A stretch of DNA of 64,000 bases from Dehalococcoidia bacterium (GTDB taxonomy: Bacteria > Chloroflexota > Dehalococcoidia > GIF9 > AB-539-J10), in assembly GCA_021162545.1 (NCBI GenBank), contig JAGGYM010000060.1, forward strand, positions 1,999 to 65,998. The letters run 5' to 3'. Under the pieces are notes generated by a model. It worked only from the letters and a program-made list of their open reading frames with translations. It was not told the origin of the DNA and did no database searches. Both the position numbers and the translations under genes were made by a program. This document shows, piece by piece, positions 1 to 34,936 of this stretch (position 1 is the first letter of the stretch; each line of letters starts with the position of its first letter).

Positions 1-107
1 TCTCCTCAAAGTCTAATTCGTCTCCCATCTTGAATGCCTCCCAGGCACGAGGTTACTTATGCACATAATATGCCAATGCAGGTATGATAACAATAGCAAA
101 TTGAATG

Positions 108-2651
108 CTATGTCTCCCTGTATTCATGCTCACCTGCAAATAATTCGTTTATCCTCTTCTGCCATTCATCTTCGAAGATAACTTTAAATACTACTCTCCG
201 GTCAGGGAATTCCAGTTTAAGTTCATCCCAGCTTTTCTCCTCGGCAAGCTGATTGCAGAGAGCAAATACCTTCTCCTTGTAGCCCGTGTCCTCGTTTTTC
301 AAGTGCAAACCCTTGGTCTCAACGACAAACACCTTATCACAGTTTAACTCATCAACCTCATCGATTTCTGTAAATATGAAGTCCGGGTATATCCTGTGTT
401 TCCTCCACCCCTGTATCGAATAATCCTGCCTCGAAATATTCCGATACCACCACAACAATTTGCCCTGCTCCTCCAGATACCAAGCAACCGACTGTTCCAT
501 TGAGTTGAAATCTTCTTCAGGAACAAAGTCAAACAAGTTCTTTTGCAGAGGCTGTCCATCTGAGCAGTTAAGAGTTCGGCTCAGCTTATTCACAATAATG
601 TGGTTGGGCAGGCGAGCCTCTTTGATGCTTTTGAGAAGCAAGAAACGCAAATCTCCATCATTGACTAATTTTCTAAACACTTCCTCTGCCAGACGGTCTT
701 TTTCTCTCTCCACATGCTTGCGAAGCTCCTCCAGAATGAAAACCAGATTATTTGTTACCGCTTTGAGGTCATACTTTGCCAGCAGATAGCCAAACAACTG
801 TTTGCAAGCGTCATATGCTACCCACGGGTTAGGCACGATATCGTTCAGATGCCGCACCGCAAATACATAATCAAGAGTTAGCCCTCCTTCCTTGAGCTTT
901 TTTAACCCCCCGAGCTTAGCAAGGTTGAACGTACTATCCCCCAACCCAACCTTCATTTCTATATCTTTATCCTCTGTCGCAGACAAGGTTAAGGACTTGA
1001 GCGAGCCCCACTTCATCCGCTTCCAGTCAATATTACCCAATATATCCACTTCATAGTTGGTCTGCCTCCATCCGGGACCATCACGGACCACAAAGACAGG
1101 AAGATAGATAGTGCCAGCTAAATGCTTAAACCTCTCCCTGAGTTCAACTATCCGCTCACTCTGCGTTTCAACACCTTCCTCCGGCGTCTCATCTGTTACT
1201 ATGCGCGTCGTGAGATCTCCAAGTCCTTCTACTCCAAAGCCTGCAGTAATATTCGCCAGAAGATTGGCTGCCTTCTGCTGGGAACAGAACACATAGCTTT
1301 CATCCAGTTCCCTGATACCTGTCTTCTGCGCAAAGGGCTGTCGCAAAATGCGCCCCACGAGTTGAGTTAAGTTGTTCTTCGAGGCTGGATTGGTTAGCAA
1401 AGTTAGAACATAGGCAAACGAACAGTCCCACCCTTCCTGAAGAGCCTGCTTGGTAATAATATAGCGCACGGGACAATCCCGCGAGAGCAGATCTATCCCC
1501 TCAATATCATCTTTCTCGCTGGACTTTACTGCTACCTGGTTCTCTGGAACCCCACGGATCCTGGTTAAATACTCTCTCGCATCCTCAGCATGGATAAATC
1601 GGCTTCCACGCTGGTCTCTGCCAGTGCGTTCTACCTGTATCAAGCAAATTGGACGGATAACCTGGCCTGTGTTTGCTTCATACTCCCGAGCCTTTTGCTC
1701 AAGCAAATCACGCCTTTCAATGCTTGAGAGCAACGTATCTTTCCAATCTATGCTTGCCTTGTTGGTAATGTGCAAATCAAGCTTGATCATTTCTTCCCGA
1801 TTGAGCTCGGCTCCCTTGATATCCACCAGGACATTGCTCTTTTCCAGAGGAGTTGCAGAAAGCTCTACAATCATGACAGGGTTAAACCCACGGAGCGTCC
1901 CCTGGGCAGTCTCGCTATAAGCCTTGTGTCCCTCATCCAGGATAATAATGGGAGAAAGCATGCGCAACGTATTTCCCAGGGAAGTTTTTGCCTGGCGCGG
2001 GAAGAAGCTGCTTTCATCATCAAAACAATCCAAATTTGGAAACTGTTCCAATAATCTGGCGTGACCGTCCGCATCATCATCAGAAGGAAAGAACTCGGCA
2101 AAGCCTCCACTATCTCTGAAAACCTTCAACGTTTCTTTGTTTTGCCTCGAAGCCGAAGGAAGCATCAGCATCATAACAACCAAATTCTCATTTACATCCT
2201 CCGAGGTAAAGCGATCGGTCTTCTCCAGGATTGCCGTTCTGCCTCCGCTGGCAATATCCAGATGCTGGCGGTATGGGTGATCATGGTCACGCAGGTTTTT
2301 AATTGTCTGGCGATAGATTTGCGTTGTCGGCACTACCCATAACACCAACCCCGTGTGTCGTTTCAGGTAGGTGGTCTGAACCAAGTCAATCACCTTTGTG
2401 GCAAGTAGAGTCTTCCCTCCTCCAGTGGGTATTTTCAAACAGAAATTGGGAAGCCATTCGCCAAGGCCATTCTTGCGCGATCTGTACCCACCCAGTCCCA
2501 CGCGCTCCCATGCCTTTGCAGGAAAGTCTATCGCCATATCAGGACCGAGGAACGCAACAGCATGCTCGCTTTTCTCACGAAATTCACTCAAAGCTTCGAG
2601 GTAAAGCCTGACCTGCGTTAGCGTTTTCTGCTGGTACTCTTTTAGCTCCAT
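108..2651 (-). CDS. res: Type III restriction enzyme Res subunit (SF2 helicase plus C-terminal PD-(D/E)xK nuclease)
   Basis: 847 aa. Helicase motifs: Walker A-like GGGKT and DEGH (DEAH-like). C-terminal YPDF...VVETKG nuclease motif typical of type III Res. Sits immediately downstream of the mod gene. Visibly more AT-rich than surrounding genes. Confidence 0.85.
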   Translation of the reverse strand: MELKEYQQKTLTQVRLYLEALSEFREKSEHAVAFLGPDMAIDFPAKAWERVGLGGYRSRKNGLGEWLPNFCLKIPTGGGKTLLATKVIDLVQTTYLKRHTGLVLWVVPTTQIYRQTIKNLRDHDHPYRQHLDIASGGRTAILEKTDRFTSEDVNENLVVMMLMLPSASRQNKETLKVFRDSGGFAEFFPSDDDADGHARLLEQFPNLDCFDDESSFFPRQAKTSLGNTLRMLSPIIILDEGHKAYSETAQGTLRGFNPVMIVELSATPLEKSNVLVDIKGAELNREEMIKLDLHITNKASIDWKDTLLSSIERRDLLEQKAREYEANTGQVIRPICLIQVERTGRDQRGSRFIHAEDAREYLTRIRGVPENQVAVKSSEKDDIEGIDLLSRDCPVRYIITKQALQEGWDCSFAYVLTLLTNPASKNNLTQLVGRILRQPFAQKTGIRELDESYVFCSQQKAANLLANITAGFGVEGLGDLTTRIVTDETPEEGVETQSERIVELRERFKHLAGTIYLPVFVVRDGPGWRQTNYEVDILGNIDWKRMKWGSLKSLTLSATEDKDIEMKVGLGDSTFNLAKLGGLKKLKEGGLTLDYVFAVRHLNDIVPNPWVAYDACKQLFGYLLAKYDLKAVTNNLVFILEELRKHVEREKDRLAEEVFRKLVNDGDLRFLLLKSIKEARLPNHIIVNKLSRTLNCSDGQPLQKNLFDFVPEEDFNSMEQSVAWYLEEQGKLLWWYRNISRQDYSIQGWRKHRIYPDFIFTEIDEVDELNCDKVFVVETKGLHLKNEDTGYKEKVFALCNQLAEEKSWDELKLEFPDRRVVFKVIFEDEWQKRINELFAGEHEYRET

Positions 2652-2655
2652 ACCT

Positions 2656-4278
2656 TTACCTGGCTAATTTATATATCTCAAATGGTAGCTGAGCAAAATC
2701 GATATGAAACTCCTGCAAATGTTGTTGGTCAAGATACTTGGCAGGCGCAAAAACTAACCGCTTCTTGCCATTGTATGGTCCCAACTCCTTAGCCCTGTCG
2801 AGAGTCAAAGCAGTAGCCTTGAGATAATCAAGCTCAGGTTTATAGAAGAGAAAGACTTCATATTCCCGACTTTCTCCCACAAAATTTCGGTCTTCATCCA
2901 CCATGACTTCATCAAATTCCTCACCTGTAGCTGTATAGAACACATAACGGGCAAGCTCATTATAAGTTGGCAAATTATCACCCTGCAAAATGCTCTCCAT
3001 CTCGATAGGTTTGCCCAGCTCAAAGTAACTGAATGTCCCGCCTAAACCTTGCTTGAGAGATTCATCTTTGGCTTTGGGAACACCCTTAATCACACGCCTC
3101 ACACGCTCAGCGGTCGTTTGATTGGCATAATCCTCACACTCCACCAGAATAAATTTGCGGTTGCCTCCATCCTCTTTGTTAAGTGCCAGGACGGCGTGGG
3201 CAGTAGTGCCCGAGCCAGCAAAGGAATCAAGGATGACGGAATCACTAGCAGTAGTATAAGTCACGAAGAATTTTACCAAGTCCTTTGGTTTGGGATTCTC
3301 AAAAATATCTTTGACTCCAAAAATATCCTTCAGTTCATCAGAGGCGTCTCCTGTACTCGCGAGTTCATATAGGATACTACGTTCCTTGATTCTTCTTACT
3401 GCTCCCTCTGAATAGTACATTTTTTCATAAGGAACCCATTCTCCATCTTTCTTCCCCCAATAGATAAGATCATTCTTAATAAGCATTGTCATTCTCGTCC
3501 TACCAACCCGCCACCGTCCTTCTCTCCCATCGGGTGTTTTAGGATAAACTTTCTTACCATCGGGAGATTTGATCCCAAAAAACATCTTTTCCCTATCCTC
3601 TCGCCTCGCTGCTGTACCCCATTTCGCAAGTTTTACCGCATCAAACTTGCCTCTGCTATCCTCTTTATCAAACTTGGCTACGTCTATAGGTATAACTTCA
3701 TCAAACCATTTGAATTGATTAGTTCTCGAATAGACAAGAATGTATTCATGCTCAGTGACGAAGTATGCATCAGTCTGCCCACCTCCCTCTTTCTTCCTCC
3801 ACACAAACACCCCTATAAAATTCCCCTCAAAAACATCATCCATAAGCATTCGCAGGTGATGAACCTCGTTGTCATCAATAGAGACAAAGATAACGCCGTC
3901 ATCCCGCAGGAGTTCTTTGAGAAGCCTCAGCCTGGGCATCATCATACATAGCCATTTGTCATGGCGCGTCAAATCTTCTTTATCTACCACTTTGCCCAGC
4001 CATGCCTGCATCATGGGGCTATTAACATTATCGTTATAAGCCCACCCTTCATTGCCAGTATTGTAAGGTGGATCGATATAAATACACTTAACCTTCCCTG
4101 CATAAGTTGGAAGTAAAGCTTTGAGCGCTTTCAGATTATCCCCGTGTATAACGAGATTATCGTGCAGGCTTACTTTATCCGTGACACTTTTTGCTTTTTG
4201 TGGCACCAACTCATGATATTTGACCGTAAGATGGTAATTCTGAACAAACGGTTTGCCCTTGAAACTCAGCGTTGCCAT
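2656..4278 (-). CDS. mod: Type III DNA methyltransferase Mod subunit (beta-class N6-adenine MTase)
   Basis: 540 aa. DPPY catalytic motif (IYIDPPYNTG) precedes the FAGSGTT SAM-binding motif, i.e. beta-class order as in type III Mod. A 4-bp gap to res fits an operon. Confidence 0.85.
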   Translation of the reverse strand: MATLSFKGKPFVQNYHLTVKYHELVPQKAKSVTDKVSLHDNLVIHGDNLKALKALLPTYAGKVKCIYIDPPYNTGNEGWAYNDNVNSPMMQAWLGKVVDKEDLTRHDKWLCMMMPRLRLLKELLRDDGVIFVSIDDNEVHHLRMLMDDVFEGNFIGVFVWRKKEGGGQTDAYFVTEHEYILVYSRTNQFKWFDEVIPIDVAKFDKEDSRGKFDAVKLAKWGTAARREDREKMFFGIKSPDGKKVYPKTPDGREGRWRVGRTRMTMLIKNDLIYWGKKDGEWVPYEKMYYSEGAVRRIKERSILYELASTGDASDELKDIFGVKDIFENPKPKDLVKFFVTYTTASDSVILDSFAGSGTTAHAVLALNKEDGGNRKFILVECEDYANQTTAERVRRVIKGVPKAKDESLKQGLGGTFSYFELGKPIEMESILQGDNLPTYNELARYVFYTATGEEFDEVMVDEDRNFVGESREYEVFLFYKPELDYLKATALTLDRAKELGPYNGKKRLVFAPAKYLDQQHLQEFHIDFAQLPFEIYKLAR

Positions 4279-5036: not shown

Positions 5037-5123
5037 GGAGGGGTGACCGAGAGGCCTATGGTGGCGGTCTTGAAAACCGCTTTCGTCTTATGGCGAACGT
5101 GGGTTCGAATCCCACCCCCTCCG
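5037..5123 (+). tRNA. tRNA-Ser (anticodon TGA), long variable arm
   Basis: Acceptor stem GGAGGGG/CCCCTCC. Anticodon stem-loop GGCGG-TCTTGAAAA-CCGCT with anticodon TGA. Long variable arm. T-arm GTGGG-TTCGAAT-CCCAC. Discriminator G. CCA not encoded. Confidence 0.8.
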
Positions 5124-5206
5124 CAAGGAAAGATACTCCTCCAGCGCTTTTCTCATCACCCCCAGGGAACTCATGACCGGTTCTTAAAGATGCATACCTT
5201 CAGATT

Positions 5207-30248: not shown

Positions 30249-31133
30249 TCAAGAAAAAATGGCATTAACGAAATTCTCCGCGTTGAACGGCAGCAAATCC
30301 TGCAGCTTTTCGCCCGTTCCCACATAGGTGATGGGTATCTTCAGCTCATCGCAGATGGCAAAGGTAATCCCTCCCCTGGCCATGCTGTCCAGCTTGGCCA
30401 GAAAGATATCGGTTACGCCTATGGCCTGGGTGAAATACCTCGCCTGAGTCAGGCCATTTTGCCCCGTGGTGGAATCTATTACCAGCAGAACCTGCTGGGG
30501 AGCCGAGCCATTGCGCCTGGAGGCCACTCTTCTTATTTTCTTGAGCTCCTCCATCAGGTTAGATTTGGTGTGGAGCCGCCCCGCCGTGTCGATAATCACT
30601 ACGTCGGCACCCCGGCTATAGGCTGCTTCGATGGTATCAAAGGTAACCGCACCAGGGTCAGAGTGGAGTTTGTGTGCGATGACCTCAGCTCCTGCCCTCT
30701 TGCCCCAGTATTGCAGTTGCTCAATAGCTGCCGCCCGGAAAGTATCCGCCGCCCCCAGAAGAACTCTTTTCCCCTGAGTGGTATAGCTATAGGCCAGCTT
30801 GGCTATGCTGGTAGTCTTGCCCGAGCCGTTGACTCCCACCACAAGGATAACCATCGGGGATGAGGCAGATACACTGGTATAGGGTACGGTCAACAGGTCT
30901 ATCATCTCTCCCTTCAAAGCTGTCTTGACCTGTGCGGGGTCAATCAGTTTATCGTCCTTTACTCTTTGCTTGACCTTGCCCAGCAGCTTATCCGTGGTCT
31001 CTATGCCAACATCAGCGAGGATGAGCAATTCTTCCAGTTCTTCCCACGTTTCCTCTCCGATGGCCCCCCGGTTGAAAAGGCGCGTTATCTTGCCAAACCA
31101 GCTTTCTCCTTTTCTATCTGCCTTGCCGAACAA
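30249..31133 (-). CDS. ftsY: Signal recognition particle receptor FtsY (short NG-domain form)
   Basis: 294 aa. SRP GTPase motifs: GVNGSGKTTS (G1), DTAGR (G3). N-domain helical bundle. No long acidic A-domain. Confidence 0.9.
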   Translation of the reverse strand: MFGKADRKGESWFGKITRLFNRGAIGEETWEELEELLILADVGIETTDKLLGKVKQRVKDDKLIDPAQVKTALKGEMIDLLTVPYTSVSASSPMVILVVGVNGSGKTTSIAKLAYSYTTQGKRVLLGAADTFRAAAIEQLQYWGKRAGAEVIAHKLHSDPGAVTFDTIEAAYSRGADVVIIDTAGRLHTKSNLMEELKKIRRVASRRNGSAPQQVLLVIDSTTGQNGLTQARYFTQAIGVTDIFLAKLDSMARGGITFAICDELKIPITYVGTGEKLQDLLPFNAENFVNAIFS

Positions 31134-31344
31134 AAAATCTCCCCGTTAGCTCATCGCAATCAATTTAGATGTAATAATATCACAAATCCAGACCCCGAAT
31201 TGAATCCCTGCAGATAGCTTAACCTGCTTGGTTGATTGACAGAAACTGCTCCATGGTTCATGTTGCACCACCTGGAACTCCTCGCAACGACAGGGGAATG
31301 TCCGCTCGCCAAATCCACAAATTAAAGTTTAGCCATAAATAATG

Positions 31345-31374
31345 TTGACATCATTACATAAGATTGCTTAGAAT
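31345..31374 (+). promoter_or_regulatory. Sigma70-like promoter immediately upstream of the tubulin-like gene; transcript probably leaderless or nearly so
   Basis: TTGACA at 31345-31350, 18-nt spacer, TAGAAT at 31369-31374. The ATG at 31381 is only 6 nt after the -10 box and has no Shine-Dalgarno sequence. Confidence 0.45.
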
Positions 31375-31380
31375 AAATCC

Positions 31381-32553
31381 ATGAAGTTATTAGTTATAGG
31401 ATTAGGTCAATGTGGTGGTAGAATTGCCGACAGATTCGCCCGCCTGAACAAGAGGGCTCATGCACAACGAGGAATCCAGATCATCGCTGATGCGTTCGCT
31501 ATAAACACAGACGTTACGGACCTGAGCGGATTGCGCACCATCGGCCCCGACTACAAACACAGAATCCTCATCGGGGGGTCACAGACCAACGGCCATGGCG
31601 TAGGCAAGGTAAGTGAATTTGGCGCCGAGATAGCAAAAGAGGACAGCGACAAGGTCATAGACGCCCTGAGAACCTCAGAGCGTTTCCACGACACAGACGC
31701 TTTCATGCTTATAGCCAGCACTTCCGGAGGCACCGGATCAGGAGCAATAGGCGTCCTGACTCAGCTCCTGAAGGAGCGCTATATCGGAAAGCCGGTTTAC
31801 AACGTTGTCGTTCTTCCCTTCCGACAGGAAGAAACGACGGAAGCAAGAACTGTGTACAACACGGCCATATGTCTCAAATCCGTATATCTAGCAGCCGACG
31901 CCATCTTTCTTATCGACAACCAGAGGTACGTCAAGAAAAATGCCTCGCTTATGAGAAACATGGATGTCATCAATGCCCGGGTGGTTGAGCCATTTTACAA
32001 CTTGCTCTGTGCTGGAGAGGAAACGAACCAGCGGTTCGTCGGGTCAAAGGTACTCGATGCCGGCGATATAATGCAAACCCTGGCGGGATGGACAGTGTTG
32101 GGAGAGGGTTCTTCCCCTCTTCAAAAGAAGAGGTTTTCCTTCGGGGTGAAGCACGATTTCAGAGATAAGATGTCTGAAACCAGCAGGGGGGCCCAGTGCA
32201 TGGACGCAGCGCTGGGAGAGTTATCCCTTCCCTGCGAACCTAAAGACGCCAGGAGAGCACTATACCTCATCACTGCACCACCCAAGGAAATAAACATGGA
32301 CATAGTTAAGGAAGTTGGTGATAACCTGAGAGGCATAGCTCCCAACGCGCTGATAAGGAGCGGCGACTACCCACGGGGGAAAGATACCCTGAGCGTTTCT
32401 GTAGTCCTCTCTGAACTTACAGCGGTGAGGAAAATCACGAACTACTTTACCCAGGCGCTCGACCTGATCGCTACCATGAAGGCAAGGCAGGGATTGCAAC
32501 TACCCAGCAGGAAGTTCGAAGAAACCTTCAATGACATCCCTGTCCTGCTATAG
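31381..32553 (+). CDS. Tubulin/FtsZ-superfamily GTPase, tubulin/CetZ-like (not canonical FtsZ)
   Basis: 390 aa. N-terminal MKLLVIGLGQCGGRIADRF (GQCG glycine loop T1, as in tubulin GQCGNQ and CetZ GQAGG, not the FtsZ GGGGNA). T4 signature ASTSGGTGSG fits the tubulin pattern [SAG]GGTG[SA]G. Preceding NGHGVGK loop. T7-like region LIDNQ. Central helix and C-terminal domain present. No acidic tail. Confidence 0.75.
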   Translation: MKLLVIGLGQCGGRIADRFARLNKRAHAQRGIQIIADAFAINTDVTDLSGLRTIGPDYKHRILIGGSQTNGHGVGKVSEFGAEIAKEDSDKVIDALRTSERFHDTDAFMLIASTSGGTGSGAIGVLTQLLKERYIGKPVYNVVVLPFRQEETTEARTVYNTAICLKSVYLAADAIFLIDNQRYVKKNASLMRNMDVINARVVEPFYNLLCAGEETNQRFVGSKVLDAGDIMQTLAGWTVLGEGSSPLQKKRFSFGVKHDFRDKMSETSRGAQCMDAALGELSLPCEPKDARRALYLITAPPKEINMDIVKEVGDNLRGIAPNALIRSGDYPRGKDTLSVSVVLSELTAVRKITNYFTQALDLIATMKARQGLQLPSRKFEETFNDIPVLL

Positions 32554-32667
32554 AAAACAGCTAGCATCTCTGGGTTTGCCTGCCAGCGGCAACCATCTCC
32601 TGTAGCGCTGCCCCTCGAGATGAAGATAAAGCGGGTTTGCCTTCAGCGAAAGGGCTCGCCTGTTCTG

Positions 32668-33105
32668 CTATTTCTTGCTCTTGGTAAAGATATCCCAGCT
32701 CTGCTCCATGCCCTCATTGCGAGCTTCCAGGCTCTTCAACTCAGTTTCCTCGCGAGCCTTCATCGCCAGGGAAATGCTTTCCTCACAGGCCTTGCGAGCC
32801 TTCCCCTCTACTTCTTCACGGACCCTTAATGCCTGCGCTACACTTTCTTCACAGGTCTTCCTTGCTTTCTCCCTGGCCTCCAAATAAGCCTTCTCTATCT
32901 TCTGCTGCTGGTCCCTGTAAGCCCTTTCAACCTCACGCTCAGCTTCGATATAAGCAGCGTAAGCCATGACCGCCCGCTGCTGAATTTCACCGAGGCCCGT
33001 TCCCTCTGCAGGTTGCTCAACAACCTTCCTGGCAACCTTTTTAGCTTCCTGTTCTATTTCCTCGGGTTTCTGTTCAACTGCCCCATGACTTTCCATCCCT
33101 GGCAT
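32668..33105 (-). CDS. Small charged alpha-helical coiled-coil protein with tandem about 22-aa Cys-containing repeats
   Basis: 145 aa. AAGGAGG RBS 6 nt upstream of the ATG. Repeats KARKTCEESVAQALRVREEV / KARKACEESISLAMKAREET and AY-rich heptad-like segments. No TM segment or signal peptide. Confidence 0.6.
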   Translation of the reverse strand: MPGMESHGAVEQKPEEIEQEAKKVARKVVEQPAEGTGLGEIQQRAVMAYAAYIEAEREVERAYRDQQQKIEKAYLEAREKARKTCEESVAQALRVREEVEGKARKACEESISLAMKAREETELKSLEARNEGMEQSWDIFTKSKK

Positions 33106-33232
33106 AATGCACCTCCTTCAGTTACTACAGGTCCTAATTTTATTACACTTAACTGGATCCATTCAAGAAACAAAGCGGAAGCAAGGAAACCACTTCAAGG
33201 TACTCCCACGTCATGGTTATCCCCGGGCTACC

Positions 33233-34843
33233 TCAAGAGTCATCTTCTTCTTCAACTTCCTCTCCAATTTGCTCCTTATCAGATTGATACATCTTGGACA
33301 GGAAATCCAGGCGCGCCTTGATATCCCGTCCCGCCTTTTGAGGAGCTTCGCTCTTCCCCTTTTTGCTTTCAGCCTGGCTCAGCGCTGCCTCGAAGGCTCT
33401 TGGCGACGCTTCAGAAAATTTCTCCGCCGCACCTTCATCCACAGGGCCAGCGATCCCACTGAACTCCTGCGCTTTTTTCAAGGCTTCCCGGAATGCCTTT
33501 ATCGACGCTCTGGCCGCCCTCTGTGCTGACTTGCCCGCTTCTTCATTCCTTTCGACCGCATCTTCCAGCAGCCGGATCGACGTCTCCACCGATTCTCTGG
33601 CTACCTTTATCGAGTCCGCAGTCGCCTCCCTGGCCAACCGCACAGACTCCTCAGCAGCCTCTCTGGCCGACTGACTCACCTTTATTGCTTCCCGCGATAC
33701 CTTTTGAGCTTCAGCAGTAGCCTCTTCCGACAGCTTGCCCACCTCTTCAGCTTTACTCATGGATTCCTCCGCCACCCTCCTCGCTTCCTCAGCAATCCTG
33801 GTAACCTCCAGATTGGTAGTTTCAGCCCTGCTTATCGCTTCCAGCGATATCTTCTGCGCCTCATCGGCAGATTCATGGGACATCTGGCTTATTTCTTCAG
33901 ATCTGCTCACCGCTTCCCGTGAAGCCATCATCGACCTCTCCATATCTCTCCTGGAGGATTTGATTGACGCCTCAGCTCTATCTATAATTTCCTGGGATGA
34001 TGCCACCAGGGCCATGGCTTCTTCCCGAGACTCTTTCTCTATCTCCCTGGCCCTGTTCAGCACCTCCTCCGTTGCCCTTTTAGCCCTGACATTGGCCTCT
34101 TGAGCTATCCGTCTCCCCTCCTCAGATTTGCGCATAGCTTCATCAAATGTCCTCGCTGTTGCCTCCGCAGTTGATTTCGCCACTTTGCTTACCTTTTCAG
34201 CCATGTTGACAGCTTCCTGCGCTGCCTTTTTTGCTTCCCTGGAGACCTTCGTGATTTCTCTGTTCATCTCCTCTCCTCTGCCCACCGCATCCCGCGACGT
34301 TTCTCTAGCATCTTTGGCCACTTCCCGCGTTACCTTGCCCATCTCTTCAACTTTGCTCAGCGCCTCCTGAGAAGCCTTTCTCGCCCCCTCAGCTTCCTCC
34401 CATGATACCTGTCCTACACCTTCAACTCTCTCTATCCTCTCTTGCGATTCCCTTACCGATGCCTCAACAGTTTTCTGAATTGACTCGATCTTCCCCTCAA
34501 GTTTATTCACCGTATCCTCAAACACTTTCGCCGAGGCTTCGGCTGTCTTCGTCATTGCCTCGATTGAGGCCTCTGCCCTTTCCACTGCATTCTGAGACGC
34601 CTTTGTCACCGCGTCAGAGGTCTTCCGTGCTGCCTGGCTTGCCTTTTCCACCCGCCGCACCAGTTCCTGCAGCGTTCTTTTGGCTTCCCTAGCAGCTTCT
34701 TGAGTTTCATCACTTATTCTCTCAACCCTATTGATGGCATCCTGCGACGCATGCGATGATTCCTTGGCCGCCTCCTGAGCCGCCAGGCTCAGCATCTTCG
34801 CCTTGGCTACCGTCTCTTCAAAGGAATTGTTGCCATCTGCCAT
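33233..34843 (-). CDS. Large 11-mer-repeat amphipathic-helix / coiled-coil protein (LEA-, apolipoprotein- or phasin-like architecture) with acidic C-terminal tail
   Basis: 536 aa, almost entirely A/E/R/K/S. Clear 11-residue periodicity, e.g. REAIKVSQSAR|EAAEESVRLAR|EATADSIKVAR|ESVETSIRLLE. C-terminus ...EQIGEEVEEEDDS. RBS GAGGG before the ATG at 34843. Sits upstream of the 145-aa gene on the same strand. Confidence 0.65.
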   Translation of the reverse strand: MADGNNSFEETVAKAKMLSLAAQEAAKESSHASQDAINRVERISDETQEAAREAKRTLQELVRRVEKASQAARKTSDAVTKASQNAVERAEASIEAMTKTAEASAKVFEDTVNKLEGKIESIQKTVEASVRESQERIERVEGVGQVSWEEAEGARKASQEALSKVEEMGKVTREVAKDARETSRDAVGRGEEMNREITKVSREAKKAAQEAVNMAEKVSKVAKSTAEATARTFDEAMRKSEEGRRIAQEANVRAKRATEEVLNRAREIEKESREEAMALVASSQEIIDRAEASIKSSRRDMERSMMASREAVSRSEEISQMSHESADEAQKISLEAISRAETTNLEVTRIAEEARRVAEESMSKAEEVGKLSEEATAEAQKVSREAIKVSQSAREAAEESVRLAREATADSIKVARESVETSIRLLEDAVERNEEAGKSAQRAARASIKAFREALKKAQEFSGIAGPVDEGAAEKFSEASPRAFEAALSQAESKKGKSEAPQKAGRDIKARLDFLSKMYQSDKEQIGEEVEEEDDS

Positions 34844-34907
34844 GTTCCCTCTAAAAATCCCGAAGATATTTCCTCACTTTTCCATCATTCCCCTCCACGC
34901 ACGCATC

Positions 34908-34936
34908 ATTTTATTAAGAACAGCATATTTTTTCAA
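34908..34936 (-). promoter_or_regulatory. Candidate sigma70 promoter for the coiled-coil operon (minus strand), divergent from groES promoter
   Basis: On the minus strand: TTGAAA, 17-nt spacer, TAAAAT. About 65 bp upstream of the 536-aa ORF start. Confidence 0.35.

Follow-up and report, generated by a model that had tools for sequence, protein, structure and literature searches.

CetZ is treated as an archaeal cytoskeleton, and its one well-studied member controls the rod/disc shape of Haloferax. In Prosthecobacter, BtubA/BtubB and BtubC constitute a non-FtsZ tubulin-family cytoskeleton that exists beside FtsZ, and the cluster also codes for an accessory protein. The known regulators of FtsZ, such as ZapA, ZapB and EzrA, are often coiled-coil or helical-bundle proteins. 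Here we analyze a locus of a Dehalococcoidia bacterium (GenBank assembly GCA_021162545.1) that lies within a 64,000-nucleotide stretch of contig JAGGYM010000060.1 (the window). Three open reading frames picked out in an earlier inspection of the sequence (the sequence-only reading) are present as described: a gene for a 390-amino-acid GTPase and, convergent on it, two genes for proteins of 145 and 536 amino acids, which we call cc145 and cc536. The GTPase is of the CetZ type and its gene is locked genomically to those of the two partners, both of them acidic, α-helical repeat proteins. Judging from sequence and gene order, we lean, without great conviction, towards the view that these proteins interact as a single cytoskeletal module, one specific to the Dehalococcoidia.

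CetZ-like genes in Chloroflexota-Dehalococcoidia were already noted by Santana-Molina et al. 2023 (PMC9871819), who also remark that unrelated coiled-coil genes often lie beside tubulin-like genes in archaea. Public annotation likewise names the homologues "tubulin/FtsZ family protein" or "tubulin-like protein CetZ", so that a CetZ-like gene in a bacterium is in itself nothing new. The arrangement as a whole, which the sequence-only reading did not recognize from the tubulin homologues it listed outside eukaryotes, appears to be new: the full-text literature covered, with most subscription journals outside its scope, yielded no description of the three-gene module, of the two partner families, of the paralogue expansion, of the FtsZ-like terminal peptide or of the charge inversion discussed below.

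The resemblance of the GTPase to archaeal CetZ extends over nearly its full length. The protein matches Pfam Tubulin (PF00091; E 1.7e-34, 120.2 bits against a cut-off of 33) and the CetZ-specific C-terminal domain CetZ_C (PF21011; E 1.4e-19, 70.6 bits against 21.6, residues 189-360), and both domains are present in 120/120 top homologues; there is no Pfam match to FtsZ_C or Tubulin_C. Its best solved relative is CetZ1 of Haloferax volcanii (4B46; 164 bits, E 4.1e-47, residues 1-357), with CetZ2 at 102 bits, CetZ of Methanosaeta (M. thermophila) at 69 and the best FtsZ at 48, whereas the matches to tubulin and Btub chains are confined to the GTPase core, at 27-36 bits. An AlphaFold2 (AF2) model, built from a shallow alignment in which all sequences are at least 62% identical, has a predicted local distance difference test score (pLDDT) of 52 and was used only to rank Foldseek matches; the top four are CetZ structures (1e-20 to 5e-15), with FtsZ at about 1e-14 and template-modelling scores of 0.36-0.44. 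By these matches the GTPase belongs to the tubulin/FtsZ superfamily and, within it, to the CetZ type. The earlier description, "tubulin-type, not FtsZ-type", was imprecise, and eukaryote-like tubulins score below FtsZ.

To the reading of the 390-amino-acid protein as the organism's divergent and sole division FtsZ we give practically no credence. NCBI and JGI do often name such proteins "cell division protein FtsZ", but the protein reaches only 61 bits against the FtsZ equivalog TIGR00065 (NCBIfam), whose cut-off is 295.2, and a tblastn search with E. coli FtsZ did not detect the window gene at E 1e-3. The same search found true FtsZ in two related loci (L062 and L064; 370 amino acids, 44-46% identity), each followed by a gene read as ftsA and each with a CetZ-like paralogue a few kilobases away. 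Dehalococcoidales and SAR202 bacteria have retained mraZ-mraW-ftsA-ftsZ while losing the peptidoglycan genes, and they possess an S-layer (PMC10608941). The sole-FtsZ reading is thus refuted for related genomes, and because these keep a canonical ftsA-ftsZ, the CetZ-like gene is an extra paralogue beside canonical FtsZ. In the window it sits between ftsY and the coiled-coil pair, outside any dcw/ftsA context.

The same separation is seen in a neighbour-joining distance tree with bootstrap (54 sequences, 377 columns), which includes two genuine Dehalococcoidales FtsZ proteins. FtsZ is split from all others with 100% bootstrap and contains the two Dehalococcoidales sequences, and the Dehalococcoidia proteins form a clade (75%) whose sister group is a clade of archaeal CetZ type (84%). 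Mean identity is about 30% to the archaeal group and about 22% to FtsZ. Because the Dehalococcoidia sequences form a clade of their own, apparently outside the canonical (euryarchaeal) CetZ clade, the protein is best called CetZ-like. At E <= 1e-10 the GTPase has relatives in 5,944 clusters, more distant ones included. Among the named clusters of a 50%-identity library, those down to about 37% identity are still Dehalococcoidia, and archaeal relatives take over at about 35%. The nearest relatives outside this clade are archaeal, at approximately 30-36% identity, and include haloarchaeal CetZ and metagenome-assembled genomes (MAGs) labelled Nitrososphaerales. One such contig (L087, L088; P0184) also encodes CdhC/CdhD of acetyl-CoA decarbonylase/synthase, Fae and an archaeal FBPase, a gene content unusual for the label, and the taxonomic assignment of that MAG may therefore be unreliable.

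An archaeal origin is plausible from this placement for the GTPase, though not for its partners: no cc145 or cc536 gene was found at the loci of the two archaeal relatives examined (P0182, P0184). The sequence-only reading had proposed acquisition from archaea, and that part of it can be kept for the GTPase alone. The locus shows no unusual base composition, and within Dehalococcoidia the family is an old one, so there was no recent transfer, of which the nearby TreT and NrpR genes are no evidence either; any transfer between domains would be ancient. A recent horizontal-transfer island was rejected.

Several features are shared in detail with archaeal CetZ (CetZ1 and CetZ2; 4B46, 4B45, 3ZID) beyond the common architecture of Tubulin GTPase and CetZ_C domains. 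These include the GDYP motif and the acidic T7 residues, the presence of several paralogues per genome (six CetZ in H. volcanii; PMC10606840) and a host with an S-layer and without peptidoglycan (PMC10608941). The Dehalococcoidia proteins differ in their bacterial host, in their low identity and separate sister clade, in being basic rather than acidic, in the uniformly conserved terminal peptide DIPxLL and in having two dedicated coiled-coil genes. They also carry GQCG in the T1 loop, a variant that marks the Dehalococcoidia clade, whereas the archaeal relatives have GQAG. The two signatures singled out by the sequence-only reading, GLGQCGG and SGGTGSG, are indeed present and are invariant across the family alignments. 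In the T7-loop equivalent, aspartates D226 and D229 fall at the positions of the catalytic D209 and D212 in E. coli FtsZ (NVDFADV). With the T1, T4 and T7 loops all invariant, polymerization-activated GTP hydrolysis is plausible for the CetZ-like GTPase.

Gene order ties the three genes together. A genome scan with one genome per species gave 79 loci, all fetched through the GTPase and all 79 from Dehalococcoidia or Dehalococcoidales MAGs, often with several loci per genome. Wherever the pair was found among them, by tblastn and clustering of open reading frames, the order CetZ (+), cc145 (-), cc536 (-) is kept. The 79 loci and the window together hold 41 pair-adjacent GTPase genes. This triad persists over a range of GTPase identity that begins at 93% and extends down to about 57-59%, with the partners as low as 27-35%, and it does so while the flanks turn over: beyond L001-L002 ftsY and treT are gone, and beyond L001-L003 so is groESL. 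A median of 103 nucleotides separates the two partner genes, which invariably share a strand. When the 41 pair-adjacent genes are compared with 47 other GTPase paralogues, only five changes of state are needed on the tree, so that the pair-adjacent class is coherent phylogenetically, and two positions tell the classes apart (S327 versus N, and F356 versus Y).

Because the genome loci had all been fetched through the GTPase, a reverse test was made, in which a metagenome scan was seeded with the cc145 motif alone and returned 80 loci. A convergent CetZ gene lies immediately after cc145 in 62 of the 66 loci with at least 700 nucleotides downstream; of the four exceptions, three have the GTPase beyond cc536 and one has none. 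Upstream, cc536 is found in 51/54 loci, and in the remaining three it is about 960 nucleotides away. Divergent cc145 homologues recovered by profile search were again in the triad, or in the pair at a contig end. Synteny is therefore strongly conserved in both search directions. The sequence-only reading had named placement inside FtsZ and a lack of synteny with the coiled-coil genes as outcomes that would refute it, and both checks came out in its favour. In three loci (L141, L143, L173) the CetZ gene is upstream of cc536 on the opposite strand, i.e., divergent, so that the cluster is rearranged with its three genes still together.

Another explanation of this linkage is that the partners are inherited together with the GTPase but act independently of it, as PspA-, LEA- or phasin-like proteins that protect membranes, respond to stress or coat granules, and merely have a neighbourhood or regulation in common with it. 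We regard this as distinctly unlikely. There are weak Pfam matches of partner-family members to Phasin_2 (8/31, best E 1.7e-7), BORCS6 (10/31) and ApoLp-III (1/31), one cc145 homologue was named "phage shock protein A" by JGI, groESL adjoins the pair in the window, and the cc145-like protein P0140 is encoded on a 4.6-kb contig that lacks the GTPase. On the other hand, the profile matches look compositional, the window protein itself has no match to Phasin_2, and the best matches in the PDB are de novo designed helical bundles, along with chemoreceptor (MCP) coiled coils. Neither PspA_IM30 nor Snf7 is among the recurrent Pfam families listed for the partner members, nor is EzrA, and the adjacency of groESL is limited to the three closest loci. 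Adjacency to CetZ, by contrast, has outlasted the replacement of all flanking genes and one or more rearrangements, which would not be expected without functional coupling.

Two singular sequences bear on the partner families. The first is P0140 (238 amino acids; L084-L086), which has a clear cc145-type N-terminal helix (LSDILSRAERAYSAYVEAQKDVAKAYRESE); its contigs contain no CetZ or cc536 gene, and a gene with an SNase domain lies about 3 kb off. It may be a member of the cc145 family recruited to another context. The second is P0129 (254 amino acids, from a 1,026-nucleotide Logan contig), in which CetZ-like residues 1-115 are joined directly to a cc145-like protein. Given the usual convergent orientation of the two genes, P0129 is most likely an assembly chimera; a genuine fusion, should it be one, would speak for a functional link.

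The pair does not accompany every CetZ-like gene. It was not found at the loci of the deep-branching paralogues P0164, P0165 and P0171, and taken with its absence from the two archaeal loci this places the module in a single subfamily of the Dehalococcoidia clade. Dehalococcoidales loci typically read gap, CetZ-a, cc145, cc536, CetZ-b, followed by genes read as dnaX, ybaB and recR, so that two CetZ paralogues flank the pair. Such flanking is seen in L043, L046, L051, L052, L060 and L067 (e.g., L052:8001-11733 and the next gene). Elsewhere, another CetZ paralogue, in L078, is followed by a 472-amino-acid coiled-coil protein (L078:9195-10613) rich in Ala, Glu and Lys, with an N-terminal transmembrane segment and an EzrA-like topology, and a related 388-amino-acid protein is encoded near a paralogue in L071 (L071:9882-11048). 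Different CetZ paralogues may have different coiled-coil partners.

The second Dehalococcoidales paralogue is adjacent to dnaX in 22 loci, some of them without the pair, and in L065 and L075 the order is a tandem CetZ-CetZ-dnaX. Its position directly upstream of genes read as dnaX, ybaB and recR would suit a role in DNA segregation or nucleoid organization, as in TubZ or PhuZ, with the coiled-coil proteins as adaptors to DNA; a weak PHROG match to the tubulin PhuZ (E 0.008) points in the same direction. TubZ-TubR-tubC and PhuZ also resemble the present system in having a tubulin-family GTPase with dedicated adjacent partner genes. Even so, we consider such a role very improbable. The GTPase scores 16.4 bits against Tubulin_2, below the cut-off of 27; no TubR-like DNA-binding gene is present, and Pfam profile searches of the partners gave no DNA-binding domain matches; the intergenic regions contain no iterons or centromere-like repeats; and the locus is chromosomal, among housekeeping genes, with no anomaly of composition. 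A phage or defence element was likewise rejected. PHROGs and PADLOC gave no meaningful matches for the locus.

Of the two partners, cc536 is the larger. The sequence-only reading described it as built of 11-residue repeats, which proved incorrect: its period is 25 residues, in an Ala/Glu/Ser-rich sequence, as shown by self-similarity (z of 14.5, 12.7 and 10.9 at lags 25, 50 and 75) and by hydrophobic harmonics at 5.0, 8.35 and 3.55 residues (25/5, 25/3 and 25/7). By this periodicity the unit corresponds to a predicted 7+7+11 coiled-coil unit. Members of the family range from 371 to 761 amino acids. They open with a conserved N-terminal helix (FEEAVARAE..AA..AAE), continue with 25-residue repeats that vary in number and a linker of low complexity, and end with a second conserved helix (I..RL.FL..MY) and an acidic tail. 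The acidic tail noticed in the sequence-only reading, EEVEEEDDS, is typical of the family, in which the last 20 residues have a median net charge of -4 (range -12 to +3); the median net charge of the whole proteins is -18. A single-sequence AF2 model (pLDDT 68) is nearly all helix, with helices at residues 2-143, 148-313 and 322-460, and gave no structural match in Foldseek below E 0.03. No real homologues of cc536 were found in Pfam or the PDB, where the profile matches are compositional only. Its distribution as described here comes from analysis of loci, the profile search having been swamped by low-complexity candidates (three irrelevant proteins).

The cc145 family (91-198 amino acids) has a variable, charged N-terminus and 22-residue repeats in variable copy number. 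Its conserved helix, LDExQQRAxxAYxAYxEAERQ...AYK, places Tyr every 11 residues, and the terminal W-x-I-F-T-K is conserved as well; A45, A48, Y49, Y52, A55, Y63 and W137 are invariant. The 11/22-residue periodicity proposed in the sequence-only reading is real, with a DNA repeat spaced at 66 nucleotides. The Cys residues that it pointed out in these repeats are not conserved and alternate with Tyr at the same positions in relatives; a functional Cys motif was rejected. Profile searches gave no convincing Pfam or PDB homology for cc145, and the two partner families are not detectably related to each other (hhalign probability 3.6%). In both proteins, all hydrophobic runs are too short to span a membrane.

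The partners invite comparison with crescentin, FilP/Scy and other coiled-coil-rich proteins implicated in shape (discussed in PMC10869688), which have long coiled-coil repeats that are not exclusively heptads; the 7+7+11 unit has a similarly mixed periodicity. There are, however, differences. No sequence homology to these proteins was detected, and the coiled-coil genes described here are obligately linked to a tubulin-family GTPase. Moreover, cc536 has an Ala/Ser-rich core and its AF2 model folds back into three long helices, which suggests, within the limits of the model, a bundle rather than a simple parallel dimer.

A further point of comparison is FtsZ with ZapA/ZapB, EzrA, SepF and FtsA. 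That system too has a tubulin-superfamily filament former with a terminal peptide of the type [DS]-I-P-x-[FL]-[LM] and helical accessory proteins encoded nearby. After a short linker, the CetZ-like GTPase ends in DIPVLL, which MAFFT aligns on the C-terminal peptide DIPAFL of E. coli FtsZ. Every Dehalococcoidia member of the family has the tail [DE]-I-P-x-L-L, with both paralogue classes being [DE]IP[VS]LL-like, while archaeal relatives often have a looser D-I-[DE]-x-L-[LF] and canonical Dehalococcoidales FtsZ terminates in SIP(S/A)FMRQ. The likeness of the docking peptide to that of FtsZ is a mechanistic resemblance and no evidence of membership in FtsZ.

The main rival to a dedicated module is a division-associated role, in which CetZ-like filaments act at the division site with FtsZ, share its membrane anchor and have the coiled-coil proteins as ring-assembly regulators comparable to Zap proteins or EzrA. 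This reading is favoured by the close resemblance of DIP(V/S)LL to the host FtsZ peptide, by the coiled-coil or helical-bundle character of many FtsZ regulators, and by a Dehalococcoides mccartyi study in which a tubulin-like protein and FtsZ fell together in cells of altered morphology (PMC8163811). In addition, one group of CetZ-like paralogues is convergent to the canonical ftsA-ftsZ operon (L064:359-4309, L062:549-4854), and a functional tie of that paralogue to the divisome is possible. Yet the pair-adjacent gene is never beside ftsA-ftsZ in the loci examined, and the partners have no Pfam match to the EzrA, ZapA or ZapB families, no detectable homology to SepF and no transmembrane segment. 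The family is also of the CetZ type, and archaeal CetZ1 has been linked to shape and motility rather than to division (PMC10869688). On balance we think a division role unlikely, although it deserves to be taken seriously.

How might an interacting module work? The CetZ-like GTPase would polymerize with GTP into protofilaments, as archaeal CetZ does, and its terminal DIPxLL would dock it to a partner or to a membrane anchor in the manner of the FtsZ C-terminal peptide. The cc536 protein, as a coiled coil or as a helical bundle folded back on itself, would form a rod some tens of nanometres in length whose RLxFLxxMY helix and acidic tail could engage a filament that is unusually basic: the pair-adjacent GTPases have a median isoelectric point (pI) of 8.8 and a net charge of +5, with a pI above 7.5 in 95% of them, as against a median of 7.65 for the other paralogues and about 5 for FtsZ. 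The cc145 protein, a predicted hendecad coiled coil, would be an adaptor, and together the two partners would bundle, scaffold or position filaments beneath the membrane. The most likely cellular role would be in cell shape or envelope organization in cells without peptidoglycan, in parallel with haloarchaeal CetZ1. Charge complementarity and conserved terminal motifs on all three proteins fit such a filament-plus-adaptor system, but this is circumstantial. The sole experimental hint comes from a cultured relative, D. mccartyi BTF08: an "FtsZ/Tubulin GTPase" (btf_0551) and a hypothetical protein encoded nearby (btf_0548) were abundant in pure culture, where cells have the typical disc shape, and reduced or undetected in the barrel-shaped cells of co-culture (PMC8163811).

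A more specific version of the module can be offered only tentatively, and we doubt it more than we favour it. It would be a lineage-specific cytoskeleton of three components, in which basic CetZ-type filaments are decorated or cross-linked by acidic coiled-coil rods and set the disc shape of the cell; its arrangement of charges would be that of tubulin E-hooks and microtubule-associated proteins (MAPs), inverted.

Several observations weigh against an interacting module. The btf_0548 and btf_0551 genes are presumed members of the triad, and in the same study canonical FtsZ fell together with the tubulin-like protein (PMC8163811), so that the correlation with shape does not separate the two. 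The peptide DIPxLL is also found in paralogues without an adjacent pair and resembles the peptide of the host FtsZ; the coiled-coil proteins may therefore not be its receptor, which could instead be FtsA or SepF. Some archaeal relatives without partners (P0182, P0187) likewise have a basic pI. Finally, the GTPase model is poor at its pLDDT of 52, and the tertiary packing of the single-sequence cc536 model, at a pLDDT of 68, is unreliable.

If the three proteins do form one module, it would be, next to BtubAB, a second example in bacteria of a tubulin-family system that is not FtsZ and has accessory proteins of its own. The likeness to BtubAB lies in the combination of a bacterial lineage, a tubulin-family system other than FtsZ and a clustered accessory protein. 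The differences are equally clear: BtubAB is close to eukaryotic α/β-tubulin and reaches only about 30-34 bits against the GTPase described here, its partner is a tetratricopeptide-repeat protein rather than a coiled coil, and it is known from one genus only, whereas the CetZ-like system is class-wide. In Dehalococcoidia the CetZ-type family is abundant and multi-paralogous, and it coexists with FtsZ in bacteria that lack peptidoglycan. It is a candidate for shape control in bacteria with an S-layer and no wall, among them relatives of Dehalococcoides, that matter for the environment and for bioremediation. The partners are two new protein families with defined terminal motifs, and are suited to the study of how tubulin-family filaments recruit partners. 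Should the three-component version also hold, this would be the first case in Bacteria of a tubulin-family cytoskeleton that sets cell shape and has MAP-like partners dedicated to it, with a GTPase shared anciently with Archaea.

The GTPase gene has its own promoter-like site, close to consensus, with a -10 element that ends 6 nucleotides before the ATG. The same geometry of -35, -10 and ATG recurs across the clade to which the window belongs (about 30 loci, L001-L034), where the distance from -10 to ATG is 6-7 nucleotides. A leaderless start, predicted by the sequence-only reading together with a strong promoter, is well supported for this clade because of that conservation. In the Dehalococcoidales clade (L035-L067) the CetZ-like gene is preceded by a leader of approximately 25-30 nucleotides with a GGAG-type Shine-Dalgarno sequence; the 5′ architecture thus switches between clades within one orthologous gene family, from leaderless to a leader bearing a Shine-Dalgarno sequence. 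The promoter-like sites and the remaining features of the locus are collected in Table 1.

Table 1. Features of the CetZ-like locus, in positions of the window
Feature	Position	Strand	Remarks
FtsY, SRP-receptor-type GTPase	30249..31133	-	read from translation and conservation in closest relatives
Promoter-like site of CetZ-like gene, TTGACA-18-TAGAAT	31345..31374	+	11/12 consensus matches
CetZ-like GTPase gene	31381..32553	+	390 aa, pI 8.8; open reading frame, Pfam, PDB and Foldseek matches
T1 nucleotide-binding loop GLGQCGG, residues 7-13	31399..31419	+	G7, G9, Q10, C11, G12, G13 invariant
T4 loop GGTGSG, residues 116-121	31726..31743	+	invariant in alignments
T7-loop equivalent LDAGDI, residues 225-230	32053..32070	+	D226, G228, D229, I230 invariant
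C-terminal peptide DIPVLL, residues 385-390	32533..32550	+	I386, P387, L389 invariant
cc145 (small partner) gene	32668..33105	-	145 aa, pI 5.4
Weak promoter-like site ahead of cc145, TTGAAT-18-TAAAAT	33137..33166	-	9/12, consensus match alone
cc536 (large partner) gene	33233..34843	-	536 aa, pI 5.2, net charge -18
cc536 acidic tail EEVEEEDDS, residues 528-536	33236..33262	-	sequence and family alignment
cc536 C-terminal motif I-x-x-R-L-x-F-L-x-x-M-Y, residues 508-519	33287..33322	-	R511 invariant; L512, L515, M518, Y519 at least 90%
Promoter-like site of cc536, TTGAAA-17-TAAAAT	34908..34936	-	10/12; divergent from groES promoter
groES, groEL	35027..	+	read from translation and conservation in closest relatives

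The names FtsY, GroES and GroEL come from the translations and from conservation in the closest relatives, with no family search behind them. This conservation, together with a protein on record from a Dehalococcoidia MAG that is 100% identical to the window's CetZ-like protein, agrees with the bacterial origin recognized in the sequence-only reading. The exact cc145 and cc536 sequences of the window are absent from the protein collection, for which differences in start codon are the probable cause. Rfam and tRNA scans of the locus gave no match, and a search for an intrinsic terminator between the convergent genes found none.

Finally, at the start of the window, positions 1-4000 have a lower G+C content (0.45-0.47, against approximately 0.53 elsewhere) and a strongly negative GC skew. 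The sole tRNA gene of the window, tRNA-Ser(TGA) at 5037-5124, lies just past this region, and the low-G+C first 4 kb beside it could be an integrated element.

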